From: Fimicolochytrium jonesii
Taxonomy: Eukaryota
NCBI RefSeq assembly: GCF_025526975.1
Contig: NW_026515699.1
Coordinates: forward strand, 1-64,000
Length of the DNA: 64,000 nucleotides
Direction of reading: 5' to 3'
In this document: positions 23,234 to 60,364 of the stretch, in pieces
How the letters are laid out: each line of letters opens with the position of its first letter
Position numbering within the stretch: position 1 is the stretch's first letter
Notes under the pieces: generated by a model
What the model was told of the DNA's origin: nothing
Seen by the model: the letters and a program-made list of their open reading frames with translations, nothing else
Database searches by the model: none
Position numbers and translations under genes: made by a program

Positions 23234-23803
23234 TCACTCCTTCTTCCAGAGACGAGCTTCGATGTTGCGGCGTTCAACCAAATGGGCGGGCTCACGAGCT
23301 TCAATATCGCGGCGTGGAACCCGTTCAGCCTTCCAGAGACGTGCTTCGATGTCGCTGCGTTCAACCAAATGGGCGGGCTCACGGGCTTCAATGTCGCGGC
23401 GTGGAACCCGTTCAGCCTTCCAGAGACGTGCTTCGATGTCGCTGCGTTCAACCAAATGGGCGGGCTCACGGGCTTCAATGTCGCGGCGTGGAACCCGTTC
23501 AGCCTTCCAGAGACGTGCTTCGATGTCGCTGCGTTCAACCAAATGGGCGGGCTCACGGGCTTCAATGTCCCGTGGAACCCGTTCGGCCTTCCAGAGACGT
23601 GCTTCGATGTCGCTGCGTTCAACCAAATGGGCGGGCTCACGGGCTTCAATGTCCCGTGGAACCCGTTCAGCCTTCCAGAGACGTGCTTCGATGTCGCTGC
23701 GTTCAACCAAATGGGCGGGCTCACGTGTCTCCAGGACCGGGACGGCGGCGGCGAAGGCGGTGGAGGCGGAGACGAGGAGGAGGATGGCGGATGTGAACTT
23801 CAT
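23234..23803 (-). CDS. Secreted tandem-repeat peptide precursor (KEX2-processed repeat protein-like)
   Basis: Signal peptide MKFTSAILLLVSASTAFAA, then 6x EPAHLVER and 5x LWKAERVPR(R) plus a terminal LWKKE. The units are separated by [L/I]xxR, PR and RR sites. Confidence 0.85.
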   Translation of the reverse strand: MKFTSAILLLVSASTAFAAAVPVLETREPAHLVERSDIEARLWKAERVPRDIEAREPAHLVERSDIEARLWKAERVPRDIEAREPAHLVERSDIEARLWKAERVPRRDIEAREPAHLVERSDIEARLWKAERVPRRDIEAREPAHLVERSDIEARLWKAERVPRRDIEAREPAHLVERRNIEARLWKKE

Positions 23804-23980
23804 GGTTGATGATCTGCTTGTTGAGAGAGGTAGTGTTGGTGTTGTTGCGAGGCGGTTGTTGTTGGTTGATGAGAAGAGGGGATCTGAATGAGGGTGGCCG
23901 GCTTTTATGCCCTTTTTCGGATTGCATGGTAGTTGGCGAAGTCCTTGCCGGCGTACGCGTCGTCGTCGTAGGGGAAGCTA

Positions 23981-24309
23981 CATTGGCGCGTAGGAAAGGA
24001 AAGGAGAGGCCACAGCGGGCGTTGGGAATAGCTAAGGCACCAGCGGTTGTGGGCGCCGGCGGTTCAGGAGTCGCGCATTGTTGCAGACACATTGGCGCGT
24101 AGGAAAGGAAAGGAGAGGCCACAGCGGGCGTTGGGAATAGCTAAGGCACCAGCGGTTGTGGGCGCCGGCGGTTCAGGAGTCGCGCATTGTTGCAGACACA
24201 TTGGCGCGTAGGAAAGGAAAGGAGAGGCCACAGCGGGCGTTGGGAATAGCTAAGGCACCAGCGGTTGTGGGCGCCGGCGGTTCAGGAGTCGCGCATTGTT
24301 GCAGACACA
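23981..24309. repeat. Three identical-looking 109-bp tandem repeats
   Basis: A unit starting CATTGGCGCGTAGGAAAGG recurs at 23981, 24090 and 24199. Confidence 0.95.
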
Positions 24310-35910: not shown

Positions 35911-37165
35911 ATGCTCCACTCCCACTCCCACTCCCACTCCCACCACAACCCACTACTGCTCCCTCCACAACAACAACCACCACCACCGCACTCCCCCTCT
36001 CCTCCTCCCCCTGCTCCTTCCAACCCCGATAAAGAACAAGCAGCAGCAACGAAAATACAAGCCGCTTTCCGCTCCCACCGCACAAACAAAGCACTCGCCT
36101 CCCTCGCCGCATCCCCCTCCCAACTCTGGTCAACCGCCCTGCAAAACGCCCGCATCGCCCTCTTGCACGAACACAACGCTACTTGGACCGCCGCCCAAAC
36201 CCTCCCTTCAGCCCCAAACTCACCAACAACAACAACAACGCGAGCCATATGGAAACGCGGTGCACTCCTCACATCCATCCTCGGCAAGGGCTCAGCTGGA
36301 ATATCCAGTGACAAGTCACTTACCTTACTCACCGAGCACTGGTTGGAGAGTTCAGATGGCTTGCATCGGTATGGGAGTAACTTGAAGCCGTACCATGAGT
36401 TGTGGGTGCAAAGCGGGACCCCACAGCCGTTTTTCTATTGGTTGGATCATGGGGACGGCCGTGACGTGGATTTGGAACGCGAAGGGAGGAGTAGGGAGAG
36501 GTTGATGAAGGAAAGAGTGAGGTATTTGGATGAGGTCGAGAGGAGGGCTTATGAGGTAACGTGTGGTGGACGACCGACCGCGACGACACCCTTTTCATTT
36601 TCTCTTCGCGACTTTTGAATCAATGTTACTATAGGTGACAGTAAACGACGGTCTACTCATCTACAAAGAAAGCGGCGACCCCGTCCACACCCTCCCTCCC
36701 ACCACCACCTCCTCCTCCTCGGGCGATATCCTCCCGGACTCGGACCCCAACGACACGGAAGAAGAGCGCCTGCGCAAAAAACGCCTCCGCAACGCCTACA
36801 AACACATCTACATCCTCTCCCCGACGTCCCAACTCTACATCGCCCGCAAACAAAAGGGCCAGTTCCACCATTCCTCGTTTTTGAACGGGGGCACCGTGTG
36901 TGCCGCGGGCGGCATCGTTGTTGACAGGGGCAGGTTGAGGAAGATCAATACAAAGAGCGGACATTATCGCCCCGGGAAGATTAACGTGGGTGAGGTCGTG
37001 GGCGTCTTGACCGGGTGGGGGGTCAACATGGAGGGCGTTGTTGTCAGTAATCCGTTTGATCAGGAGGGGGATGGTGATAATGGCCATGGCCATGATAGTC
37101 CGTCTGTTGCCGGTGTGAGTCCGACGAGGGAGGAGGGGGACGGGATTGAGGGGCTTTGTATATAG
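35911..37165 (+). CDS. IQ-motif calmodulin-binding protein (IQM-like)
   Basis: IQ motif AATKIQAAFRSHRT, plus HWLE..D..HRYGSNL, QPFFYWLD.GDG and GQFHHSSFLNGG...SGHYRP. Intron 36556-36634. Confidence 0.85.
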
Positions 37166-38312
37166 GTTGTGGGCGCATAATTCTACTCCTGACGCAATAG
37201 ACAGACAGCTAGACATTGCCCGCAAACAAAAGGGCCAGTTCCACCATTCCTCGTTTTTGAACGGGGGCACCGTGTGTGCCGCGGGCGGCATCGTTGTTGA
37301 CAACGGCAGGTTGAGGAAGATCAATACAAAGAGGGGACATTATCGTCCCGGGAAGATCAATGTCGGCGAGGTCGTGGGCGTCTTGACGGGCTGGGGGGTC
37401 AACATGGAAGGCGTTGTTGTCAGTAATCCCTTTGATGAGGAGGGGGATGGTGATAATCGCCATGGCCATGATAGTCCGTCTGTTGCCGGTGTGAGTCCGA
37501 CGAGGGAGGAGGGGGACAGGATTGACGGGCTTTCTATATAGGTTGTGGGCGCATGATTCTACCCCCGACGCAATTAGACAGACAGCTAGACATCGCCCGC
37601 AAACAAAAGGGCCAGTTCCACCATTCCTCGTTTTTGAACGGGGGCACCGCGTGTGCCGCGGGCGGCATCGTTGTTGACAACGGCAGGTTGAGGAAGATCA
37701 ATACAAAGAGCGGACATTATCGCCTGGGAAAGATGAACGTTGGCGAGGTCGTGGGCGTCTTGACCGGGTGGGGGGTCAGCATGGAGGGCGTTGTTGTCAG
37801 TAATCCGTTTGATTAGGAGGGGGATGGTGATGATGGCCATGGCCATGATAGTCCGTCTGTTGCGGGTGTGAGTCCGACGAGGGAGCAGGGGGACGGGATT
37901 GAGGGGCTTTGTATATAGGTTGTGGGCGCATAATTCTTTTCCCGACGCAATTAGACAGACAGCTAGACATCGCCCGCAAACAAAAGGGCCAGTTCCACCA
38001 TTCCTCGTTCTTGAACGGGGGCATCGTTGTTGACAAGGGCAGGTTGAGGAAGATCAATACAAAGAGCGGACATTATCGCCCGGGAAAGATCAATGTCGGC
38101 GAGGTTGACCGGGTGGGGGGTCAACATGGAGGGCGTTGTTGTCAGTAATCCGTTTGATCAGGAGGGGGATGGTGATGATGGGCATGGCCATGATAGTCCG
38201 TCTATTGCCGGTGTGAGTCCGACAAGGGAGGAGGGGGACGGGATTGAGGGGCTTTGTATATAGGTTGTCGCACATAATTCTACTCCCGATGCAATAGACA
38301 GACAGCTAGACA
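36837..38312 (+). repeat. Four tandem copies (~376 bp) of the IQM 3' coding end plus 3' flank
   Basis: Copies start at 36837, 37213, 37590 and 37967. Later copies carry substitutions, a stop codon and deletions. Confidence 0.95.
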
Positions 38313-44362: not shown

Positions 44363-45018
44363 TCATTGCTCTTCCGTCTCCAGTGACCGCTCAGTGCCCG
44401 CAATCCCGTCTTGCTGCTTACTCGTCTTCCACTGTATCGCGTCTATATGCTCCTTCCAATCCCTACTCTCTATCCTCTTGAAGTACTGCGGGTCCAGGGG
44501 TCTATTCCACCGGTAGTAATATACCTGTATTTCTTCTCCTTCCTTCTCCTGAGGGGTCTCTGGTGATGATCGCTTTGCTGCTGCTGCTAATGGTACCGGT
44601 GGCGATGCTAATGTGACTTTTCCCTCTGCACGGATGTACATATTGGAGTTTGACGAGGGTCCGTGGTAACTCTGAAGCTCGTCCAGTTGCATCAAGATGG
44701 ATGTATAGTGTTCTGTGAAAGGGATTACCAGTGTTAGCTCTTGGTCTATTCTCCGCCGAGTGATCTCTCGCGACCAAACGCGCACCTTCAGCAAAGTACA
44801 TCACTTCACCCCGCCTCCGCCGCCTCCGCCTCCTCCCCTCCCCCCGCCTCGACGATGACCGTATACCAGTCGTTTAGGGAATACATATTGTGTCGTTTGA
44901 GGATCGCGCCTCGCACATTGGTAACTTTGTCGGCTAACGAGAAGAGGGAGTGATTGGGGAGGCCGGTGAGGAGGGTGCCGTACACAAAAAGCGGATGGAA
45001 TGCGGTTGGGGAGGGCAT
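44363..45018 (-). CDS. Gamma-glutamylcyclotransferase (AIG2/GGACT-like), frameshifted in a G-rich tract
   Basis: LFVYGTLL.G.PNH motif. GEVMY lies in a shifted frame, followed after a GT-AG intron by LDELQSY...YIR and VYYY. Confidence 0.75.
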
Positions 45019-45789
45019 TGGGCTCGAGGTTAGCGATCCGGCAGTTTGGGTTCTTCGAGGAACGTGGTTCGTTAAGCTTGCTGATGCAAGTGATGAGAGA
45101 ATGGGACTTCAATACCGTGGAAGCCTGGGAACAGTTTTGGGTGAAAGGTTCTTGGCGGAGGTGCCGTCAATTTGCTTAGCGGCACGCTGTCAAAAAGCCA
45201 TTTCGCCAACAAAGCCTGCGGTGAGAAGAACCTTATGTCCGGACGGCTCCCCACGGCTGTTGGGTTGGAGTCAGTTCATCTGCGGTTGCAGGTTCTTGGA
45301 AGGAAAAAAAGACGAAAGCGTCCTGGGATTGTACCGCGGTGGGGATGAGTGTGTACGGGAAGTGGAGTTTAAGGAAGAGGTGGTGGTGTCAATGTTGAGT
45401 AACGGAGGATGGTTACGCCGTATGGGATGGAAGGGAGTGGGGTGGGACGGGATTGATACGTTGGTGGGAAAGGATGGGAGAACGGTGAATTTTGGGGGCA
45501 AGAATGCGACAATGGTTAGGAAGGGGGATGAGGTGAGAATCGAGACCCGGAGGGTGGTGGGTGGGAAAGGAAGGTTGAGGATGTCAAGGCGTAGGACATA
45601 CGTATTCCCTTCTCATTTCGCAAGTGAACCAAACTCTTTCACTTACATATTTTTTCTATCATCACCCAATTCTGTACATCTGTATCCCACTCGCTCTTTC
45701 TTCACAACCAAAAAGGCAGTAATCTCTAATGTGCATGTACAAACGGCTCCCAACTGTATTGGCACATGGGGACATCGTACATTCTTCTA

Positions 45790-46240
45790 TATTGGAATCT
45801 CACTTCCGGGCCGTCTCGTAGTTCTCCAGGAACCATTTCATGGTGGCATCCAGTGTTGTATGATTTCGACATTCAGTTTTTACCTGGACGATGGAATCAT
45901 ATCGCCGCCATGCTTTCTCGCAATCCGATTTATGCACCTCGGTATGTAGATTGTCAACGACGCCTCGACATGCATACGCAGGTTAGTAATACGCTTGCTG
46001 GTGAACCTTTCCTCAACGCTACGACAGACGATCCACAAAACTCACCTACATGCTCAGAAGAAGAATGGAAAAAGGCGCTACGTGAAGATCCGTATTCGGA
46101 TTATCTCGATGAAATCTCACAAAGACCTCAACATGAGAAAACCTCAAGAGAACTACGATATACGTTCGAAAATGGACTCGTACGACATGAAGGACGTTTA
46201 TACGTTCCCGAATCTATTCGCCCAAAGATTTTACGAAAAT
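45790..46240 (+). mobile_element. Ty3/gypsy pol remnant (RNase H end / integrase linker)
   Basis: WW..LYDFDIQFLPGRWNHIAAMLSR and YTFENGLVRHEGRLYVPESIRPKIL. Confidence 0.75.
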
Positions 46241-46321
46241 TCCCTAACCCTAATGGAATTTTGCCAAAGTTAGGGTAAAAAACCTAACTTAGACTAACCC
46301 TAACCCTAACCCCAACCCTAA
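46241..46321. repeat. Degenerate telomere-type CCCTAA/TTAGGG repeats
   Basis: CCCTAACCCTAA, TTAGGG and CTAACCCTAACCCTAACCCCAACCCTAA. Confidence 0.8.
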
Positions 46322-46647
46322 GATGGGAAAAGCGATCCCCGCCGTCTTCGGACAATGTCATCGGAAACCGAAAAAGCGATCCTTCGGACATTCTCATCGG
46401 AATCACCCAAAACCGAACGGCTTTCAGGACGTCGGACTTTCAGGACGCGTCGAATTACATAAGTCAATCTAACCAAATCCGGTTGGCTTGCCAATCGACC
46501 ATCTCCCGACGCGCCTGAATAACTCGCCCACTACCAAAATTCACCGATCATCCTTGCCTCGATCCCAGAATGAAAGGTGAGCCGTTAGATCTTGGACCCA
46601 GCCCAGTGAAAGGACGTGGTCCTGCAGCTATTGAACGTGCGCGGGGT

Positions 46648-47052
46648 ATCGGATCGCTTCTTCTCCTTTGGAGGAAGCGTGATGGCGGACATGAACAGCC
46701 CTGTAACGCCAACAGGGAGGGTGTGTCCGAGGGTATGGCCCCTGACGGGGAAAAACTGATGTGGTCTCGGCTAACCTGGGTGCCCGGTTTTGCAACCCGG
46801 TCCAGGACCCTTGACCAAGGTCTCATACCGGCTGGCGCCGGAGCGCTTTCCCACGTAAGCTCATCGCATCGGATCGCTTCTTGTCTCAGAAAGCGTGATG
46901 GCGGACATGAACATCCCTAACTCGCAATGGGGAGGGTGTGTCCGAGGGTATGGCCCCTGACGGGGAAAAACTGATGTGGTCTCGGCTAACCTGGGTGCCC
47001 GGTTTTGTAACCCGGTCCAGGACCCTTGACCAAGGTCTCATACCGGCTGGCG
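46648..47052. repeat. Two tandem ~190-nt copies of a highly structured element
   Basis: Copies at 46648-46837 and 46868-47052 with near-identical 3' parts and multiple hairpins. Confidence 0.9.
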
Positions 47053-47357
47053 ATGGCGCTTACCTGCGAGGTTGCAGGATGAGAGTCGGTTTTTATTGTT
47101 GAGGAATGGAATGGATGCTAATCATCTCAAACATACTTTTCCTTTGCATTCATACATTGATATTCGTCCCCAACGTATTCATCGCCCATTAAACCGACAT
47201 ACTCTTATCGACGCATCAACCAACCAACCAACCAATTCCTCTGATTCCCCGCCATTCACCTCAATGAACCCTTTACATATGTTTTTGCCACTTGTAAGTG
47301 CAACTGTTTTGGTAATAAGCGTGTTCGAATAAACCACTCCTCCATCGATCATAATCG

Positions 47358-49510
47358 TTGACTTGTCTTGCTCCACTTTTGCTTTTCGGTGATGCCAGCC
47401 GTATTGCAGACACCCATACCCTAACAGAGTACGTCTGGAACAGCATCAAAACTCCGACGTTTACCCTCCGAAAATTCCTTGCGTACGCAAAAATTGAGGA
47501 GGATGATTCGCCGGAGACTGTCCTGATCCAGCTGAAAGAAATGCTGCAGAATATCGAACTCCGCCATCTTCGTACCACCGATTCCGTGGCTTTGAAAAGA
47601 AAAATATTTCACGCTAAAATCATGCTCCTCATAGAGGAGTCAGAAAACGGCAATAATGAGATCTGGAAGGGTTTCTGGGAGGTCCACGAGTCGCGCTTAA
47701 GAAAGAAGGGGACAATGACCAGGCAGGCGGACATTTGGGGAAGAATCTGTGCAGGAGGCACAGCAGGAATCGGCCCGAAAGCTGGGGTCCAAACGAGATA
47801 AGCGTGCCGGCGGGGACGAGGAGGATGAGGAGGGCTCGGCGGCCAAGCGGCGGAAAACTACTGGCAAGGATTCAGTCGACATACAGTCAACGCCAATCAG
47901 CCTCCTGGCCGCCGAAGAGGAATGCGAAAGCAACGACGATGTCAGCGAAGTGGAAGATATCACTGCCACTAGCGAGGGAGTCGCCGGCAATGGTCGCAGC
48001 AACGTCTCTTTTGCTTCAACAGACAATAATCTCATCGATAAGGATCTGGAGATCTCATCAGACGAAGATGAGTTTAACCAACAGCACCGAATCCTGTTCA
48101 CAGAGGCTTATAGCGAGATGGAGCCTAATAACAAATGGATCCTGCGATCCGGCCGCTGCGTCGAAGACGTAATGTACGAGGCTGGCATGAAGTTCAAGTA
48201 CACCAGGTAAATTGAATCTCGCAATATGTTAGAGCTTCCTTGTAAGTCTTACACCGTGTCGTAGCAACATCCATAGTTTCTGCTATGTCAATACCGACCG
48301 AAATATCACGTCGCTATTTACGGACGAAGAGCGAGAAGAGTTAGAAGAAACGAACACGAAATGTGTCCCGCCTTTTACCAAAGGGGGCACCTTCCACAAC
48401 TTCTACAATAAATTCGCCGCCTGTGGCAACGGGGACGCCTTGCGGGACATGCTCTTTAGTGAACAAGAAGAGCTTCAATCTTCTCGAAGCACGGATGAAG
48501 AATTTTGGCATTGTCAGTTGTACCATTCGTTTTTGGTTGACATGTAGGTCAAAACCTGTTTCGTTTGGGTTTCTTTCTTTCACTAATGAACGTGAAGGCT
48601 TCTATTAAGCTCAAAGACCAACAAAATCAGTGAAGACTTATCGGAAGCGTGGCTATTGGCAAATCCGTACCGTGCCCTTCAAATCTTATTTGGCGACAAG
48701 GAGCACATTTTCTTCCTGAGGTGGGAGCACATTTTCTTCCTTGGATTGTCAGTCATGTAGGCGAATGCTCATCATATGTGTTGTGTGCAGCGGCGAGAAG
48801 GGTGGTGTTGCTGTGGCTGATCGAAAGAACATGCAAATGGCATTGCCAGCAATGACGCAGATGGTTAAAAAGTGCGTTGGCAAGAAAGGCGACGGCTACG
48901 TGAGGGCTTTCGACGGCGTAGTCAGAGATCTAGCAGCTACCGAGGCTGGCCTGAAATGGGAAGGGTTCAAGGGAACTAAATTGATGGTGGAGACTGTTAA
49001 AAAGCTCCCAAGAGTCCTGCGGGACATCTTTTCTAGTAACCACAGCCGTGGCGGCTCCCAAGAGACCCTTCTACGCTCCATGGCAGTGCCAGGTCTCGCA
49101 ATATATGGGCCAATGGTCAGCTTACTCCTATTGGATGCCCCAAATGGGTACATCGTGCGGTGCCGAGGCAGTGACTGGAGAGAACTGTCACTGTCAATTT
49201 CACCGGCGGTGATCAAAGCTAACGGCATGATATTCACCATGTTCCTCACAATGCGGGTGGGTATTCTGTTTGAGTTTGTCACTGCTAACAACACGCTAAC
49301 CGGAGACCATCCCTATAGATGCATGTTCTGAGGAACGAAGAGCTGATAGCCCGTGCTGGGGGGGAAGACGAAGAGGAAAATGATCCAGCACTGGAATTGT
49401 TAGCAGCGTTCGGGGGTCGGAAGAAGCGGCGTCCGACGGGACTTGCACTTCCAAAGACGCACCCGACTCCTAGGAAGAAGCGGATGTCTGCCAATGGCAC
49501 CGTCAAATAG
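47358..49510 (+). pseudogene. Multi-exon putative restriction-endonuclease-fold (PD-(D/E)xK, Crinkler-REase-like) protein with a frameshift
   Basis: KWILRSGRCVEDVMY, IHSF...FTDEE, SGE...AVADRKN, GKKGDG...EAG and KLPRVLRDIF resemble expanded basal-fungal REase-like families. Frameshift near 47740. Confidence 0.5.
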
Positions 49511-49648
49511 CATGATGTATCTGATAATCGAGGCTTCGTCGAAGCACGAGCTGCTAGTTCAGCCACTTTGTCGTCCAAATCGCTGTGCCCATATGTGTGG
49601 TGTTTCAGCTTTTCTGCATAATCTGGTGTATGGTAACAAATACGTGTT

Positions 49649-50869
49649 TCAAATTGTAGAATTATTAATGATTGCATTCATGAGTGATAAAGAGGAAGGG
49701 AACTGCCCTGTTTGGTCCATCACTTCCATCTCTAATGAAAGGTCCTTCGCACCTGCCGCATACCACGGAGGGATGTCTTGGAAGACAGTCACCATGCTGA
49801 AGATTGCTCGCTCTGCTCTGGGGCAACCAAGTTGCCTAACCGTCTGAAGGGTGCCAGCACCTGCATCCACCTCGATATAAGTGCATGAGCAATGCTCACG
49901 GTAGTGCTTTTCCAAGTCACCCACGGAAGTCTGTACATGTACTTCACAGAAGAAGCAAGGATACACCTTGAAGCGGCATTCGAGTTCATGAATTTCTCTG
50001 TGCCACGGTAGGAGGACCCTCTCGCAACCCTCAAGATTGTGAAAGAAGCGCCCGCTTTTGCTGATTTCGCATTTCTGCACCCTTGTTTGCATTGAGGACA
50101 AATGTAGTGTGGTCCGTTTGAACACTGCAGAATTGGAAAATCTACATATCCGAAGCATATTTGGCATGTTAAGGAAATCTTTATCGCCCTTTATTTGAAG
50201 AATGATTGATTGGTTTTCTTCTCCGGCAGAAACCGGTTCTTCCTTCATTTTTACTCTTCGTTGGCTATACAATGCCCAGCCGATCCTGCCAAAAATCGAT
50301 AATGCATATACACTGAGGGGATACTGCTTCGCAAAAGCCCGAGTCGTGCTGCGGCGTTGCCGGATCTTTTCGACTCTTCGCTTAAGAAGAGGCCCCTGTA
50401 CATTCTCTGCCAACTTGCGTAGCTGCCGGTTCGCAAAAGAAACCACCAAGCAGTAATGATATCCCATTCCGAATCTCGGGCAGCCTGCAGGGCGTGCGTG
50501 GCCACGTCGTAAAAGGTGTCCAGGAGGAGGGCGTCGTCTTGCAAAACGAAAGGATTGCCCGTTTCCAGCAGGGTCCGGCATGCCATTAGATGCGACTGCG
50601 TAGTGCTCACCATAGCGAGAGTGCAATATGGAAAGGGCATGGATAGTGAATCTGCGTTTTCAACGAGCGCAATCAATTAGGGCTTTGTGGAATCGGACTC
50701 GAGGAACGCGCTGTCGCTTTCTGTCAAGTCGCCGCCCGGATTTCTGTAACGCCCGCTGAGCAAAAAGCGTGAAAGCTTGCACGAGTGATGAAGCGAGAAA
50801 GGGATCCCCTTTTGGCTTTTTGATTCTGCTCTGATCAGGACCATTGGGAAGAGAACCCGCAGCTGCCAT
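49649..50869 (-). CDS. Hypothetical protein with a SIAH/TRAF-type zinc-finger-like segment (fragmented)
   Basis: GCERVLLPWHREIHELECRFKVYPCFFC...DLEKHYREHC. Confidence 0.35.
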
Positions 50870-52131
50870 TTTCGTTTGTCTACGCGCTATCCATGTCCTT
50901 TGTTATTGTCCTGCACAAGGGCAATCATGGCTTCGGGATGGCGTACATATGAAGCCGGAAAGGGGGTTGACTTCCAAACTGAAGTCACACAGAACAAATG
51001 TGTTTTGAACCCTAGGACCCCGAATACATTGGTATACGCGACGTCTATGAGAGTGCATCAGTAACAAGATGCATCCAACGTGGTTGGATTCCGGAGTCAC
51101 CAGATGTGAGCGGCAGAGCGACACTGTACATATATCGCAGCACATCCCGCTAATTAGCGCCGACACCACGGCCAGAAGAACACACCCGAGTCGAATATGC
51201 TCTTCATCCATCAGTCCAAAGCCGGCGCAGCTGTCCATAGAACATGGCAACAAATGCAGGCAACGGCTGTCCAGTCAGGGAAGGAGCATGGCATTCCATG
51301 GCACCCCGCCGGGGCACGACATGTGCAATGAACAGCCGGACTCTATCACGGGAGCATCAGAAATGATTGCGGTGCTAGGCATTCGGTGGGAATGAAGATA
51401 GATCGCAGAAGGGAGCGAAAGAAACAGCCGTGGTTCCTTCCTTCCCGGCTGCTCAGTCACCTCGATTGTTTCTTCCGTCGGACTGGCGTACCCGATAGTC
51501 CCCCCCCCCCCCCCCCCCCCCCCAAATTCTTTGTGTTTGCCCTACCATGCATGTCCTGTCCTGCTGCTCTGGTAACTATTAAAGTAGCCATGCATGCAGT
51601 AGTATAATTTAGTGCGCGTTGGGGAAGCTAGTGAGGGAGACGTGCGGATCAGCAACACGCCAGGCGATGAAGGCCCACACGACACCCCTCTTCGACGCCC
51701 ACAGAGCGCGCCTGGCCGCAGCAAAGCAGAAGGCAGAGGAAGCGCGGGCCTTCACCCCGGCCTCCGACGACGCCGAGGATGACGACGAGGAGTATACGTC
51801 GGTGGAGAGCAGCCTCCCACACTCGGAGTCCGTGTCGTCATACGGATCTACATCTGGTGGCGACGAGACAGCGGGCTCCGAGTTGTGGGAGGAGGAGGAT
51901 TATGCATTTGCGTGAGGGTGAGTTCATCATTGTCTCCGAGACAACTGTCTCCGCCATCTCCACTGCTCCTGACACACGCTCTCTCATCATAGAGCGAATC
52001 GCGAGGCTGCCCCTATTCCGGGCTGTCTCCATCGATCGCGGGAGTTGAGAGCGGAACGTTCCATGAGATCAGAATGCAGAGCGACTACGACGGCGACGGC
52101 GACTGAATTCGATCTGCAGTCTGAGAGGGAG

Positions 52132-53472
52132 TGTTATAAACAACCCGTTTCAGCCACAGCTGCCTTTTAAAGTTACCGTACCCCCCCCTTTTTCTTTTCT
52201 GTGTGTGTGTGTGTGTGTGTGCGCACACCGTCCGATCGAATGTCTATAAAACAAGTGGTGTGTGTGAAAGGGGAATAAAGTAACGAGTTCCACAACACGT
52301 TATCAGCACCATAGACCATTCTACTCTGTGTCCTACTCTAGAGAAAGACCACCTACGCCAAAACCCATTCCACCTACGAGCTAGAGCCAGACCGCCTACG
52401 CCACTACACAAAAAAAAAAAAAAACCCAATCCCACTGGCGAAAAATCTATACATTCTAAAACCACAAAACAAGACGCTTACCCTAAAAATCTGACCATGT
52501 CATCCACCACTAACGCCACTGTTGCCGCCTCCAAATTGAACCATGTAGAAGTCCTTGCTGCCAACGGCGAAAACTACCAAATCTGGAAAGATGAGATTAA
52601 AGCATTCATGGAATGGAATGAACTTCAAACCACTATGCCTCTCGCCTTCAAGGACGAAGACATCAAACTCATCAGAGCGAGAGCCAACACAGTTAACGCA
52701 GCTACTACGCCAAACGCCAGAGAAGCCGCCGCCGCCGCCGCCGCTGCCCTGGAAATCACTCAGATCAATACGCACGACAACGTTGCGGATATATTTACCA
52801 AATCCCTAGATGAAAACAAACACTGGAAGTTTGTTCACGCTCTAGGGTTGCGCCGAAAGGCCGATGTTGCCTGATACAGCGATGCGCTCTTTTCCTACTC
52901 CCAGGATCTATTTTTCCTCACGGAGGTTTTTGCGACTGGGAGAGGTTTTTACCGAGGCATTCACGACTACGACGGCGAAGCGACAACACATCCCATGCCG
53001 GTCGACCTCCCGCAAGCGGCGGTTGTGCTCAGCACTGGAAGCGTCGAGATCAGCGATGGCGGAAGCGATGGCGGAAGTTGATGGCATAAAGTTCAGGGCG
53101 TAACGAATCGCAAGCCCGGCTCCTACTCCGATCTGGACTCAAGCGATCGTGACTTGAAGAGCGAATCGCGAGTCCGGCTCCTACTCCGATCTGGACTCAA
53201 GCGATCGCGGAAGTTGAGAGCGGAACGTTCTATGGGATCATGCAGAGTGACTGCAACGGCGACTGCGGACTGAATTCGATCTGCAGTCTGAGAGGGAGTG
53301 TTGTAAACAACCAGTTTCAGCCACAGCTTCCTTTTTATAGCTACCGTACCCCCCCTTTTTATTCTCTGCAGATAGAGAGCTGGTTGTGTGTGTGGGCAGA
53401 CCGTCCGATCGAATGTCTATAAAACGAGTGGTGTGTGTGTGAAAGGGGAATAAAGTAACGAGTTCCACAACA
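52132..53472 (+). mobile_element. Internally deleted Ty1/copia LTR element (TRIM-like)
   Basis: LTRs TGTT...AACA at 52132-52297 and 53299-53472. PBS-like CGTTATCAGCAC follows LTR1 and PPT GAGAGGGAG precedes LTR2. The ORF has a gag N-terminus and a copia RNase H tail (NVADIFTKSL). Confidence 0.88.
52497..52874 (+). CDS. Copia gag N-terminus fused in frame to the RNase H C-terminal tail
   Basis: LAANGENYQIWKDEIK (gag) joined through a poly-Ala run to INTHDNVADIFTKSLDENKHWKFVHALGL. Confidence 0.75.
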   Translation: MSSTTNATVAASKLNHVEVLAANGENYQIWKDEIKAFMEWNELQTTMPLAFKDEDIKLIRARANTVNAATTPNAREAAAAAAAALEITQINTHDNVADIFTKSLDENKHWKFVHALGLRRKADVA

Positions 53473-53758
53473 CCCACATCCTTTACACGCGTGTAAAAGA
53501 ACGTGGGGATCCCCACTCCACTCTTTGCGCTCCTCACGCTCCTTACTGTACACTGCTTACAGCCTTCACGCTCGGCCTTACCGGAACCCAGCGCAATTGC
53601 GAGCAGATGTGTACTTGCCGACCACCACCAGGTAACAACCGCAATTCCTCACCGTTCTCAGCTTCATTACCACAGCACTGAGTTCTTTGACACACAGCTA
53701 TCAAGGCGATCACCTGCAACACCTGTCTCGGCTGAACTTAAGGCACAGCACAGCCATC

Positions 53759-56700
53759 ATGTCATCACACCAGGCGCTCCAGGGGCACCTGTGGTGTGGC
53801 ATCCTTACCGGAGTAACCACACCACGGCGGAAGAGGAGGAAGGTTACTCCGGTTACCCCGCGGTTGCCCTTTACCCTGCGGTTGCCCATACGTCTGCCAA
53901 CCGCTGTGCAGACACCATTGCAACCCCCGCAATTCGAGTTCCCACCTTCTGTCCAGCGCCACTTGCCCCAAGCAATTGCAGACATGGTTGGCGAGAGCTC
54001 CGGCGATGAAGACGGGCAGCAGCAGCAGCCGCAGCGAGGGCTTTCACCCGTGGACAGGGGTCTGCAGCGCCCACTGAACCTCCCCGCGCCCATCCCTTTC
54101 CTTTTTCCCAGCACACCGGGTGGACCCCTGGTGTATGAACCCCCGCCACCACCACCCCCGCCACCACCACCAGCTCAACGACCCCGCCCGCAGACACACG
54201 CCAGCACGAAGGTTTCCCTTCACTGAATCCAAAATCACAATCAAGTCCAAAGGGAGCGCCTGACAACGTTCATCGCCGATGTTCACGTCCTTGCGCGCCA
54301 CACCACCTTCTTTATCAAGTACTACCTTGGTGAGTTTTTGAGATACACTATACTGTATACTTCCCATTAAACAATGTCCTGACTGCTACATCTGCCCACC
54401 CCATCACAGCTGACCATCCTCTACACGATTTCCCGGACATCACCGACAAGCACATCAGTGTGATGTTTGAGCTGCTCAACAATCCAGGCTACAATGGCAA
54501 TCCGCTCATCGCGCAAGAGTTGCGTCCATGGGTTCAAGACTACTGTAATGTTCACGGATTCGCCCCCATCCGCATGCAAAATTGCCAACAGACCGCAGCG
54601 TACACGGCTACAAGCATCCTCACAAACCTCAAAGTTAACGTACAAGAGCATTTCATGCAAATGTTTCTGCGCTACGTCAATGAAAGGCTTGGTTTGAAGC
54701 AAGTCTAACAGCATCTCCGGAGAGCGCAGCGGCGACACTATTATCGTCGTGTCCGTCAATTTACAAAGTACGCGACGTTTGAAGAGTACCCAACCGAAGA
54801 GGAGCTTGCGCGCCTCACACGACTTGAGCGGACCATCCTCGACGAGTTATGGGCTCTGTTTCCTCCCCGGGATGAGCCGCTTGCGTACAGCCTTGCGGTG
54901 GACGCAATGCCATATTTAGGTGAGCTATGTCCCGTACATTTGCCCCCCCCCCCCCCCCCCCCCTCCAGCTCGTGCGTGACTGCGCAGCGACGCGAGCGAG
55001 CGCCTTGCTTGGTACACCGACCTGGCCAAGTGGCTGCGCGCCGGGACCCGGGCCAACGTGGTCCCCCCCCCGGCCAACAGGAAGCGGAACCCCCCTGCGG
55101 GTTCCTCTTTTATCTAATCATGGTCCGCACCTGCCTCGCCTCATCACAGGTGCCTATTGTGAGCTCTCACGCCTCTATGAGCGCCGTGGAATGCGGCTGT
55201 TTTCCGCTATCCCGCTGCGCAAATCTCGAATCCAGTCATCTGTTCGGATCGACACGGAGATCCTAGGCACTCATATCCTGGGCTTGGGCCAACATCGCAT
55301 GGGGAAACTCACCGATGAACGCAAGCAGGAGCTGTGGGGGCAGTTTCTCAACGTGAATGTAAGTCTCTATCCCTCTGCGCTTATTTCACTCACCTCACCT
55401 CGCTGAATGACGGATTGCAGGACAAGGTCTTCAAGGATCGAAAGAAGCTTGGTCTCAAATTTGATGGGTCAATCAGCACAAACGGGTATTCCGCTACCAT
55501 CCACTTCAAGAAGCCAGGGCTAAAGTACGGCCATCGCGCCCAGAAGCGCAGCAAAGCCCAAATGCAGGAAGAAGTTAAGCAGCTGTATTTTGAGCACCAC
55601 ATCGCCGAACTACGGGAGGCTCCAAACATCGTTAGCATTGATCCGGGCAAGCGTGACCTCTTGCTCTGTCGAGACATCAAGAAGGAGCGGCCATTTCGGT
55701 ACGTTTCAGTTGATTACTACTGCCCTGCTGTCCCCGCCAGCCCCCCGTCTCCGCCCGCCAGCCCCCCGTCTCCACCGCCCAGCCCCCCGTCTCTGCCCCC
55801 CAACCCCCCGTCTCCACCCCCCAGCCCCCCGTCTCCGCCCGCCAGCCCCCCGTCTCCGCCCGCCAGCCCCCCGTCTCCGCCCGCCAGCCCCCCGTATCCG
55901 CCCGCCAGCCCCCCGCCAGCCCCCCGTCTCCGCACCCAGCCCCCCGTCTCCGCCCACCATCCCCCCGTCTCCGCTGCCGCTCCCACCGCCCCTATCCCCA
56001 CCATCCCCATTGCGGCGACATTCCGTTGCAGCGTTCTCACAATGCACCACCCCGTACCAGATACACATCCAATCAACAGGCGGTCGAGACAAAGTCTCGG
56101 TACTTTCAAAGAGACATGAGAGAGCGAAAGATCAATGCCGGCATCGCTGAGATGGAATCACATATTCCATCGCACAAGAGCATGAACATCGAGGCGTTCT
56201 CAGCGTTCATTGTGGATTACGAACATGCGGGTATGATGTATCACGCATCGTCTTCAAATTTGGTAACACATGGGCTGACATCCATCCATATCCCAGATCC
56301 CGCCCTGGATGAGTTTTACCAGGATGAGATTCACGTGGCTCGCAGATTCAAGGCGTTCTCACTGCGGCAAAAGTCCCAGAGCAAGCTCATCAAGAACATG
56401 CGACGCCTGTATGGAAGGCATTTTTCGGTCATCTTGGGTGATTGGAGCGACGCTGGAAAAACCATGCGCTTTCAGGAGTCATCAAAGACCAAAGGGTGAG
56501 TGACTATCATTGGTAATATGTATTACAGTATGTCAACTCATCATGGAAATCAGATTCCGCACACTCTTTGCAAGAAACAGCATTCCATGCTACTTGCTAG
56601 ATGAGTATCGAACGTCCTCCGTGTGCCCCAACTGCCACGGCCGTGTAAAGAAAAACATCCGACAACGGCTGTCATCTCGGCCGTGGCAAGCTAGAAAGGG

Positions 56701-56923
56701 AAGAATGGAATACGTCCATGGATTGGTGGGTTGCCCCAACCCCGAATGTATCAACCAAGACTGGACGCCATTTGAGATTCCTGGAAGACGACGACCACTA
56801 CGACTACGGATGAGAGTGCACAATCGGGACGTCCTGAGCACCAAGAATTTCCTCTCGATTGTGCGTTCGGTGGTGTTTGGCAATGGCCGCAGACCAGACG
56901 CATTCTCCCGTAACCGTAGGTAG
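53759..56923 (+). pseudogene. Fanzor: Fanzor1 (eukaryotic TnpB-family RuvC RNA-guided endonuclease), 7 exons, two premature stops
   Basis: Introns 54330-54409, 54920-55149, 55359-55420, 55699-56060, 56231-56296 and 56496-56553 give a continuous ~768-codon frame. Motifs: FSAIPLRKS..VRIDT, FDGSISTNGYS, RuvC-I SIDPGKRD, ILGDWS, RuvC-II LDEYRTS, CPNC/CPNPEC and RuvC-III NRD. Confidence 0.92.
55731..55975. repeat. 21-bp C-rich minisatellite inside Fanzor intron 4
   Basis: About 10 units of CCGCCCGCCAGCCCCCCGTCT and variants. Confidence 0.9.
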
Positions 56924-57150
56924 TCTAGATTTCACCCCATCCCATTTTCCGTGGTGGTTATCTGCCATCCACATCATTGTACCTCTGCCTGAGGCGTCGC
57001 CGATGATGGCAACTTGTAATTTAGTGCGATGGACGGTGGAATCGGAGGCTCTTCCCGCTGTTTGAGGCGCGCTTTGGCTGTTTCCCGTGCGGTGACACAC
57101 CACCAACGAAGGCCCCGAGAGGCCAACCGCACAAACGGGCAGGCCGCCGC
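56924..57150 (+). ncRNA. Candidate Fanzor omegaRNA scaffold region
   Basis: Lies directly downstream of the Fanzor stop. Stems: CATCATTG/CGATGATG (56972-57008) and CCCGTGCGGT/ACCGCAC..ACGGG (57084-57139) enclosing a GGCC/GGCC hairpin. Confidence 0.4.
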
Positions 57151-57818: not shown

Positions 57819-60364
57819 ATGTCTCGTTTCGTCAGGGCTTCAAAGTGTAAGTGTTTGGGTCGAAGGACCGGGGATCACGAGCGGCGGAAGGATCGCGCGC
57901 TCTAGGAGGAGCTGGACGCACTTTGCCAGCATCCCAGTCATAGCGAGAACCTCTTCTTCCTGGCGAAAGGATGCAAGCGCCATTGTTCAGCCAGCGAGGA
58001 GGAGTTTTGGCGACGGATAGCGAGCGTAGTCTCCTGTAGCAACACCGAGTTCGTGAGCCTAGGCGAGCATTTCGGATATCTTTTTGGCTCTGTGATTTAG
58101 TGCGATTGATTCAAATTCGTTTCGTCATTCCGTTTCCTAACACGTCTGTATCGCCCACATAACAGACCGCCATGTGTTTGGCAACTCGACGAAGCGCGAC
58201 CAGTGCTTTGATAACTTGAAGGTAAGAGTCGGGATGGCAGGGGAATTCGCAGGATCGTGGACCAACCCTGCAGATGCGCTCCATGGACGAAGGAGAGTTG
58301 ATCGGCAGAGATGGAGGAGTAATCAGGGATCACACGGAGGATAGAGCTTTGCAAAAGATATTACTGCTCTCGGAATCATCACTAAACTCTGTCCCCCACA
58401 AATTCGACAGGTCTCCCGCAGCGCCTGGGATACCAACCTGGTGAAAGCCAACCCGCTCTTCATTTCCGTCAACATCGAAGCCAGCGGCGGTGGCGCCTTT
58501 GCTGTCCTCTCGCACACCAACACGGGCAAGCTCTCGGACAATCTCGCCGTCTACAACGGTCACACCGCCGCTGTGCTCGACACTGATTTCAACCCGTTCA
58601 ACGATCATGTGATTGCCAGTGCGAGTGAGGATACGAAGGTTATGATTTGGACGATCCCGCAGGGTGGGCCGGTGGAGAGTATCTCGACCCCGGCGGCTAC
58701 TCTTACGGGGCATGGCAGGAAGGTACGATCGCGTATTTTGAGGGAGTTCTCTTGGAGTGGCGGTTGATTCGGGCGATGAGTTGAACGTCTAAGCCTGGGC
58801 ACGTTTCTTTCCTCATCTTGATTCACACACTTATCAACCCATTTTCGCCTTGCCACCCCCCCCCCCCCCCCCCCCCCAAATTAGGTCGGCCACGTCCTCT
58901 TCCACCCCACAGCAGACAACGTGCTCGCCTCCGCGTCCGCCGATTTCACCATCAAGTTGTGGGACATTGCGACGGGCCAGGAAAAGACGGAGCTGACGGG
59001 CCACACGGAGATAATCCAGTCGCTTTCCTGGAACTACGATGGGTCATTGCTGGCGACCACGTGCAAGGATAAGAAGTTGAGGGTGTTTGATGTGCGGGCT
59101 AATAAAGTCGTTCAGGTAGGTGGACATGAGCTGTGGAGATTTAACATCCCTTCACCCGGCATTAACAGAGGCATTTTGTTACAGGAAGCGGTCGGCCACC
59201 AAGGCATCAAAGGCGCCCGCGTGCAATGGATGGGCAACGCCGACCGTTTCGTCACCACGGGCTTCTCGCGAACCAGTGACCGTCAGGTGTACATCTACGA
59301 CTCGAAGAACTTGAGCGCCCCGCTTAAGCAGGAGAATATCGATACCGCCTCTGGGTAAGGTTTGGAAATGATGAGGGGTTTGGGGGTAGACATTATGCAT
59401 GGAATGTGATTTTCATGAGTGCCTCTGTGTTTTGCAGTCTGCTCATGCCGTTCTTCGATGCCGACACGAGCATGCTCTACCTTGCGGGCAAGGTACGCTA
59501 TACTATAATGTCGCCTTCCGCTCTCAGAATGAACCATCCATTCGCCATACCACCCATTAATGCCCCCTCTTCCAACACAACAGGGTGACGGAAACATCCG
59601 TTACTACGAATGGGTCGACGACGAAAAGGGCCTGTACTTCCTCTCCGAGTACAAATCCGCCGACCCGCAGCGCGGACTCTCGTTCTTGCCCAAGCGTGCT
59701 GTCAACGTTTCCGAGACGGAGATTGCCAGGGCTTACAAGGTTCATCCGACGTTGGTGGAGCCGATCTCTTTTAAGGTGCCGCGTAAGGTATGTATATATC
59801 TCAGGCTCTTCTGCATCCACCTCCGCTTCGAAGCACACATGACTGACACATGACTTCTTCCACATACCTAGTCGGACGCCTTCCAATCCGACCTGTACCC
59901 AGAAACCCTAGGCGCGGAACCCTCCTTGACCGCCGACGAGTTCTTCAGCGGTAAAACGAGCCCACCAAAGCTCATCTCCCTCGAGACTGGGTTTGCGGCC
60001 GCTACTACCGCTAAAGAGTTTGTGACGACGGCGAAGCCGGTTGAGGCTGTTAATGAGAAGGTGCCGACTACGGAAAAGGAGGTAAGGCAGAGTCTGGCAT
60101 TTGTTGTGCGGGGTTTGCAAGATCACGGAACTGGCTTTGGGGATGCGATGCCTTCTTCGGGAAACTGGCGCATTCGAAGCCCACATACCACCAGCGCATC
60201 ATGGTAATCGACCTCCCTCCCACTCCCTACCTTACGCAACACAGTACCAAGACGCCTACCACGCCCTCCGAAAAGAAAACGAAGACCTGAAGAACCAAAT
60301 ATCCAACCGCGACGCACGGATACGTCAGCTCGAGGCCCAGGTCGAGTCGTTGGGCAAGAAGTAG
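57819..60364 (+). CDS. CRN1: Coronin (WD40 actin-binding protein), multi-exon
   Basis: MSRFVRASK|YRHVFG, GGGAFAV, GHTAAVLDTDFNPF, YLAGK|GDGNIRYYE, QRG..FLPKR, VPRK|SDAFQSDLYP and a C-terminal coiled coil. Confidence 0.97.

Follow-up and report, generated by a model that had tools for sequence, protein, structure and literature searches.

The question raised by positions 53759..56923 (plus strand) of a 64,000-nt stretch of DNA from Fimicolochytrium jonesii, a chytrid of the Spizellomycetales, is whether they encode a working RNA-guided nuclease. The whole 64-kb stretch is referred to here as the window. Among eukaryotic RNA-guided nucleases, SpuFz1 has been studied best, and we know of few close natural relatives of it that have been tested. 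An initial annotation had described the locus as a Fanzor1 gene in which six GT-AG introns join scattered open frames into one frame of ca. 768 codons. The answer reached below is that the locus is, with high confidence, a stop-broken and likely non-functional copy of a Fanzor1 gene with six introns. The gene's family is multi-copy and resides in a Fimicolochytrium-type chytrid; from its intact copies a nuclear, SpuFz1-like endonuclease that cuts DNA under RNA guidance is predicted.

The gene copy extends from an ATG at 53759 to a TAG at 56923 (3165 nt from ATG to stop). Splicing and translation of the seven exons yielded 2307 nt (768 codons plus a stop), in agreement with the annotated length. 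All six introns are GT..AG, with a branch-like motif close to the 3' end. The parts of the gene are given below; the domain names assigned to the exon ranges are in part what we take them to be.

53759..54329, plus strand: exon 1, residues 1-190; NLS-like motif, low-confidence Pro/Gln-rich linker of ca. 110 aa, first WED strand and start of REC; holds stop 1
53822..53842, plus strand: NLS-like motif PRRKRRK, aligned with the N-terminal PPKKKQK of Spizellomyces Fanzors; putative function
54224..54226, plus strand: premature stop 1, TGA, codon 156; from the spliced frame and the paralogue column
54330..54409, plus strand: intron 1, 80 nt; GT..AG, junction peptides
54410..54919, plus strand: exon 2, residues 191-360; REC region; holds stop 2
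54487..54489, plus strand: Gly217, where SpuFz1 has Arg96, the REC-loop Arg in the TAM groove; from alignment, the loop being 5 aa shorter
54706..54708, plus strand: premature stop 2, TAA, codon 290; from the spliced frame and the paralogue column
54920..55149, plus strand: intron 2, 230 nt; includes a poly-C run; GT..AG, junction peptides
55150..55358, plus strand: exon 3, residues 361-430; PLRKS..VRIDT, WED helix
55359..55420, plus strand: intron 3, 62 nt; GT..AG, junction peptides
55421..55698, plus strand: exon 4, residues 431-523; WED sheet and RuvC-I; Asp504 (55640-55642) equals SpuFz1 D383
55699..56060, plus strand: intron 4, 362 nt; contains a 21-bp C-rich minisatellite at 55733-55974
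56061..56230, plus strand: exon 5, residues 523-579
56231..56296, plus strand: intron 5, 66 nt; could be read through in frame without a stop, its removal resting on homology
56297..56495, plus strand: exon 6, residues 580-645; GDWSD, lid region
56496..56553, plus strand: intron 6, 58 nt; GT..AG, junction peptides
56554..56923, plus strand: exon 7, residues 646-768; Glu663 (56603-56605) equals E541, Asp738 (56828-56830) equals D606; stop TAG
56624-56635 (CxxC) and 56732-56749 (Cx4C), plus strand: zinc finger in exon 7; C670, C673, C706, C711

Junctions were examined with 11-aa peptides, 3 or fewer mismatches being allowed. The peptides for introns 1-6 were present in 6, 7, 15, 25, 37 and 43 of 52 database proteins, respectively, and most of the non-matching proteins do not cover the junction. 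The supporting paralogues are automatic gene models, not transcripts, and we infer the splicing of this copy from homology. The motifs named in the initial annotation were located in the spliced product at residues 22 (PRRKRRK), 260 (ILTNLKVNVQEHF), 276 (FLRYVN), 382 (PLRKS), 392 (VRIDT), 446 (GSISTNG), 503 (IDPG), 662 (DEYRTS), 670 (CPNC) and 736 (NRD).

Single exons sufficed to recover known Fanzors: exon 7 alone matched SpuFz1 with an E-value of 1.2e-29 and PpFz1 with 4.2e-9, and exon 4 alone matched SpuFz1 with 3.3e-15. A Pfam search with nine exon pieces gave no match above the cut-off (for the zinc finger, Cas12f1-like_TNB reached E 0.04); the long paralogues and the Spizellomyces proteins have a precomputed assignment to a newer family, PF26935 (DUF8286). 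The paralogue XP_052925929.1 (761 aa; P0036 hereafter) is full length and identical to the spliced window model at 683 of 755 residues (90%); it is stop-free as modelled, the model being an automatic one. P0036 matched SpuFz1 with an E-value of 4.6e-149 over residues 129-759, and it shares 41-44% identity with three Spizellomyces proteins and 53% with one from Gaertneriomyces. Its predicted structure has a mean pLDDT of 74, with residues 1-129 disordered (pLDDT <50). When this model was submitted to Foldseek, four SpuFz1 structures were ranked at the top (E ca. 1e-46, target TM 0.83-0.86), followed by PpFz1 and GtFz1, with Cas12 proteins far behind. The fold, WED/REC/RuvC/TNB with an enlarged REC, was found on this paralogue, taken as a stand-in for the window's own product.

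The RuvC residues D504, E663 and D738 of the window copy align with D383, E541 and D606 of SpuFz1 (numbering from PMC10432273), the alternative Glu lying beside the four-cysteine zinc finger as had been described. This triad is kept in the paralogue models (D504 in 34/36, E663 in 47/47, D738 in 42/42), and each zinc cysteine is kept in 44-47 of them. With matches to SpuFz1 in sequence and, for the paralogue, in structure, and with an alignment to the Fanzor RuvC domain, the product predicted from this gene belongs to Fanzor1.

The frame is not continuous, however, as the initial annotation had it: codons 156 and 290 are in-frame stops (TGA and TAA, respectively), which were passed over there in silence. 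In the column of the first, 13 of the 16 covering paralogue models have Arg, and CGA to TGA is one CpG transition; in the column of the second, Glu is found in the two models of the closest subfamily and Val in 13/17. No in-frame intron with a consensus donor that would skip either stop was found within 200 nt. The first ATG after stop 2 is Met357, and a product begun there would be expected to lack most of REC as well as the first strand of WED. Both stops precede the RuvC domain, and this copy is therefore likely a dead pseudogene. Among 24 differences from the paralogue majority (629 columns), nine, stop 1 included, are compatible with a single CpG transition; since CpG is not depleted overall in the exons (CpG o/e 0.93 vs. 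0.98), decay driven by methylation is at most suggested.

That the copy nevertheless functions, its stops being assembly errors, read through, edited or spliced out, is very improbable. Although its six splice sites and every catalytic residue are intact, the stops are two unlike ones, each a single substitution away from the codon of a close paralogue; no intron removes them in frame; and the adjoining coronin gene uses the standard code at its start. Broken copies look common, moreover, because just 4 of 63 paralogue models span the whole core (residues 140-750), two of these with internal gaps. The reading as a broken copy is accordingly kept.

The family was assembled from a large protein search with exon 7, in which 13 of 13 matches were F. 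jonesii models (70-98% identical). Clusters of these matches added more members, and 3 of 47, unrelated short proteins, were dropped. There were 63 database proteins at least 65% identical to the spliced window model, 57 of them named F. jonesii; these 57 are spread over 31 contigs (one locus can give two models), and all six junctions were supported among them. Multi-copy status was thereby established at the protein level. Neither blastn nor tblastn detected a second Fanzor copy elsewhere in the window, and the flanks of the window gene were not matched by any of the chimeric paralogue models. Scans of viral and metagenomic sequences returned three and four loci, respectively, all distant (21-46% identity). 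A tree was calculated by a quick method from 38 rows (35 database proteins from the nearest matches, two single metagenome exons and the window model). It placed the window model inside an F. jonesii clade with a support of 100, sister to the Gaertneriomyces protein, in a group containing the Spizellomyces proteins.

One F. jonesii model, P0072 (EV422DRAFT_623327), fuses a tyrosine-recombinase-like region to a Fanzor fragment. It is a single case; the recombinase-like part matched Phage_integrase with an E-value of 5.6e-4, below the cut-off, and the fusion could reflect nesting of a DIRS/Crypton element or else be a candidate link to a transposase.

That the gene is a single domesticated one, serving the host cell, is hardly credible in the face of dozens of copies, 88-95% identical, on 31 contigs and many of them fragmentary. 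The closest protein of another genus, too, reaches just 53% identity; what agrees with domestication is a host-like intron density (2.6 per kb of coding sequence) and the length of the N-terminal extension. Under the preferred reading, a decayed member of a multi-copy family, the way in which the copies multiplied can be addressed through the introns. Peptides derived from introns and matching window introns 2, 4 and 5 were found in 1, 2 and 2 of the 63 paralogue models. Because other copies carry the same intron sequences, the family likely spread as DNA and not via spliced RNA.

The introns also separate the family from its relatives. Expressed in residues of P0036, the window introns lie at 179, 354, 424, 516, 573 and 639, whereas SpuFz1 is a 1917-bp ORF with no introns. 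Two metagenome relatives (L004 and L005; 44-46% identity) carry a common intron close to residue 274 of P0036, and a further one is found in L005 close to residue 698 (ca. 647-702 in L004; 1235-1293 and 2575-2638 in L005); none of the six window introns coincides with these positions. Other full-length relatives are located on short contigs, e.g. 624 aa on 2160 nt, with no room for six introns. A lineage-specific gain would be the simplest reading of this distribution; intron gain in Fanzors has been published in general (PMC10530073). The N-terminus of L005 is long, basic and Pro-rich.

Target recognition was considered next to the residues that contact the TAM in SpuFz1. Q129, Q130 and Y345 are retained in the window copy. 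N133 is replaced by Ala (Ala in 18/19 models) and R291 by Gln (Arg in P0036). R96 is replaced by Gly, which is found in 14 of 16 paralogue models, the other two having Arg; the match of this column is approximate, because the loop is 5 aa shorter. In alignment A1, all nine covering rows from outside F. jonesii have Arg (8) or Lys (1) in the REC-loop column; one relative outside A1, P0076, has neither of the two in its loop. The REC-loop Arg has been called conserved, and the equivalent substitution in GtFz1, R85A, abolished cleavage (PMC11423790). Given the change at R96 and those at the other TAM contacts, the TAM of the F. jonesii family is predicted to differ, likely, from CATA; Gly at this position may also mean that even stop-free copies cut poorly.

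A stronger form of this argument would hold that the whole family has altered or weakened target recognition, most copies having spread after the TAM-groove Arg was lost, either as poor, hitch-hiking nucleases or with a different and possibly looser TAM. We regard it as possible but somewhat unlikely. The Gly of the window copy and of most models, set against Arg or Lys in all covering A1 rows from outside F. jonesii, the loss of activity in GtFz1 R85A (PMC11423790) and the near-uniform Ala at N133 point towards it; against it stand the shortened loop with its approximate column, the example of P0076, and catalytic residues that are nearly invariant, as in a working enzyme or after recent copying. 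We continue with a family in which this copy is broken and intact members would be nucleases.

A guide RNA for such a nuclease would be expected in the 3' flank, where one candidate was found.

56945..57032, plus strand: candidate omegaRNA scaffold, predicted; first hairpin 56951-56972; 3' end approximate (ca. 57030)

Its 5' motif, at 56945-56962, begins 21 nt past the stop codon, is of the omegaRNA type, and occurs once in the 64 kb, where 0.10 occurrences would be expected over the two strands; the motif was, however, drawn up with knowledge of the window. A similar 5' motif with a hairpin after it is found in published omegaRNAs, five from Spizellomyces and two from Parasitella (supplementary table), and the first stem-loop is the conserved part of the omegaRNA (PMC11423790). 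In the window, an 8-bp hairpin is predicted around the loop common to the published omegaRNAs, with different stem letters. This first hairpin scored z -3.9 (0/200 shuffles) over a 32-nt stretch chosen after the sequence had been seen. The whole 90-nt candidate scored z -1.6 (17/200 shuffles), its second stem closing at ca. 57031. Rfam returned just a chance match (E 0.8). The motif was present in none of seven relative loci, among which the sole close one with a full 3' flank is L005, and neither the 5' nor the 3' flank of L005 resembled the flanks of the window gene. An omegaRNA 5' start near 56945 is likely, as a prediction. A guide scaffold and a TAM of the family's own, both proposed in the initial annotation, are plausible predictions from the scaffold-start candidate and the differing TAM-contact residues.

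With the 5' motif and first hairpin intact, the dead protein gene could still be a live guide donor, its 3'-flank omegaRNA being loaded in trans on the protein of intact copies, like the ghost Spu-1 elements, whose omegaRNAs work with SpuFz1 (PMC10432273). We consider this unlikely: an LTR element that ends 286 nt upstream of the ATG may have changed transcription, and the scaffold's 3' end is approximate. It is compatible with the main reading, that of a broken family copy, and alters just the role of this one copy.

The neighboring LTR element is not part of the gene.

52132..53472, plus strand: Ty1/copia-like element with an internal deletion; LTRs at 52132-52297 and 53299-53472

It contains a short ORF in which a gag-like start (DUF4219, E 0.08) is joined to an RNase H-like end, and the 3' remnant of a second copia-like copy precedes it (stretch 51991-53472); the 'copia PBS/PPT' labels are in part presumed. 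An imperfect hairpin right after the second LTR (53473-53506) was not significant against shuffles (z -1.6) and was discarded. It is possible that the LTR element disrupted the left end of the Fanzor element.

No terminal inverted repeats or target-site duplication were found for the Fanzor element with right ends tried at 57030, 57045, 57135 and 57253, the best scores being at or below the 95% levels of shuffled sequences. The 3' flank gave no inverted match to 45000-53758 above shuffles, and no transposase was found within the element. With neither repeats nor a duplication found, the label "transposon" rests on copy number. A 10-mer, ATTTAGTGCG, occurs at 51607, 57019 and 58095 and nowhere else in the 64 kb (0.06 expected). 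It resembles the start of the Spu-1 repeat, and its last seven letters are the reverse complement of the end of the Spu-1 omegaRNA scaffold. It was rejected as a target-site duplication and as a left or right end, since the sequences upstream are unlike apart from the motif (378 and 38 of 500 shuffles were as good).

Elsewhere in the window, a coronin gene (DUF1899 + WD40) starts at 57819, 896 nt past the Fanzor stop, and has a long first intron (57847-58167). A 336-codon open frame at 49649-50659 (minus strand) has a weak Sina zinc-finger match (E 0.001). Tandem arrays with periods of 87, 109 and 377 nt are located at 23243-24309 and 36837-38312, and a TTAGGG repeat at 2829-2859.

Three known systems were compared with the window copy. 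SpuFz1, encoded by SPu-1 of Spizellomyces punctatus (PDB 8GKH, 9CEU-9CEZ; PMC10432273, PMC3627910), shares with it ca. 43% identity over the whole core, the fold (as modelled on P0036), the RuvC triad, the zinc finger, Q129, Q130, Y345 and an N-terminal basic motif. Both are multi-copy in a Spizellomycetales chytrid, with an omegaRNA-like motif and first hairpin, predicted in the window copy, directly past the stop. The window copy differs in having six introns in place of a single 1917-bp ORF, a Pro-rich insertion of ca. 110 aa after the NLS, Gly, Ala, Gly and Gln for R96, N133, N385 and R291, respectively, and two stops. SPu-1 is ca. 2.1 kb, with one ORF, 30-33-bp inverted repeats and a TA duplication (PMC3627910, PMC10432273); such repeats were not found here. 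PpFz1 of Parasitella parasitica (PDB 9CF0-9CF3), also a fungal Fanzor1, has DPG at RuvC-I and the 5' motif and first-hairpin loop of the candidate omegaRNA in common with the window copy, but identity is ca. 20%, and PpFz1 has an FRI insertion and the TAM ATN. The Chlamydomonas elements CRe-1,2,3 / CrFNuc, likened here by description only, are also multi-copy and carry a multi-exon Fanzor1 (5 and 10 exons; PMC3627910), but they are Helitron2-associated and algal.

The gene had been called hidden, and divergent and probably uncharacterized. As a family it is not hidden, with ca. 57 database gene models and entries in the supplementary hit tables of PMC10711439, where F. jonesii is named 33 times. 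The family already appears under "NCBI Fanzor HMM hits" in Table S2 of that paper, mostly as fragments. Among the matches listed there, KAI8816250.1 (P0032) shares 94% identity with the window model and ten are C-terminal fragments; in the accessible part of the table these are hits only, without gene structure, omegaRNA or assay. Four long models, including P0036, were not found by accession in that part. At ca. 43% identity to the Spizellomyces Fanzors, the family is not very divergent either. The remaining epithet held up, as no characterization was found. No paper was found whose main text deals with a Fanzor of Fimicolochytrium, and one co-mention cites Fanzor in its references alone. Fimicolochytrium was absent from the supplements of PMC10432273 that were searchable as text, one scanned supplement aside, with Spizellomyces as a positive control. 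Three family-specific peptides were absent from the tree table of PMC10432273 and from Data S1 of PMC10530073 (first 400 characters per cell); the family could be mentioned in the large PDF supplements to PMC10530073 and PMC11423790, outside the scope of the search. It is thus catalogued in fragments and uncharacterized, and both Fanzor1 in chytrids and introns in Fanzors are already published. The candidate omegaRNA start, the contrast of six introns with none in SpuFz1 and the Gly in place of the TAM-anchoring Arg are new here.

For the family, the spliced mRNA would be translated into a WED/REC/RuvC/zinc-finger protein of ca. 760 aa. Its guide would be an RNA taken from the ca. 90 nt past the stop codon and ca. 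15 nt of flank, and the complex would cut TAM-adjacent sites and so help to keep the element through break repair. The boldest version of this scheme is an active, recently spreading Fanzor1 that gained its six introns after splitting from intronless relatives and recognizes, in spite of lacking the "essential" REC-loop Arg, a TAM that is different or relaxed; a natural stop-free copy with the predicted ca. 90-nt scaffold would then amount to a new editor of the SpuFz1 class whose targeting range is new, and the dozens of broken copies a guide library in trans. Taken as a whole, we think that version quite improbable.

As a locus, the window copy is an ordinary dead one, moderately useful as a lead with natural variation at a TAM contact. 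Six introns against none make it a close-range example of intron gain. The family, at ca. 43% identity to SpuFz1 and with a natural model free of stops and a scaffold whose start is predicted, offers a lead to a SpuFz1-class nuclease. With these features and with natural Gly/Arg variation at a residue reported to be essential for target binding, it would therefore afford a cheap test of a change in TAM recognition, and the same variation would allow a test of whether the spread of a Fanzor transposon depends on a working nuclease.
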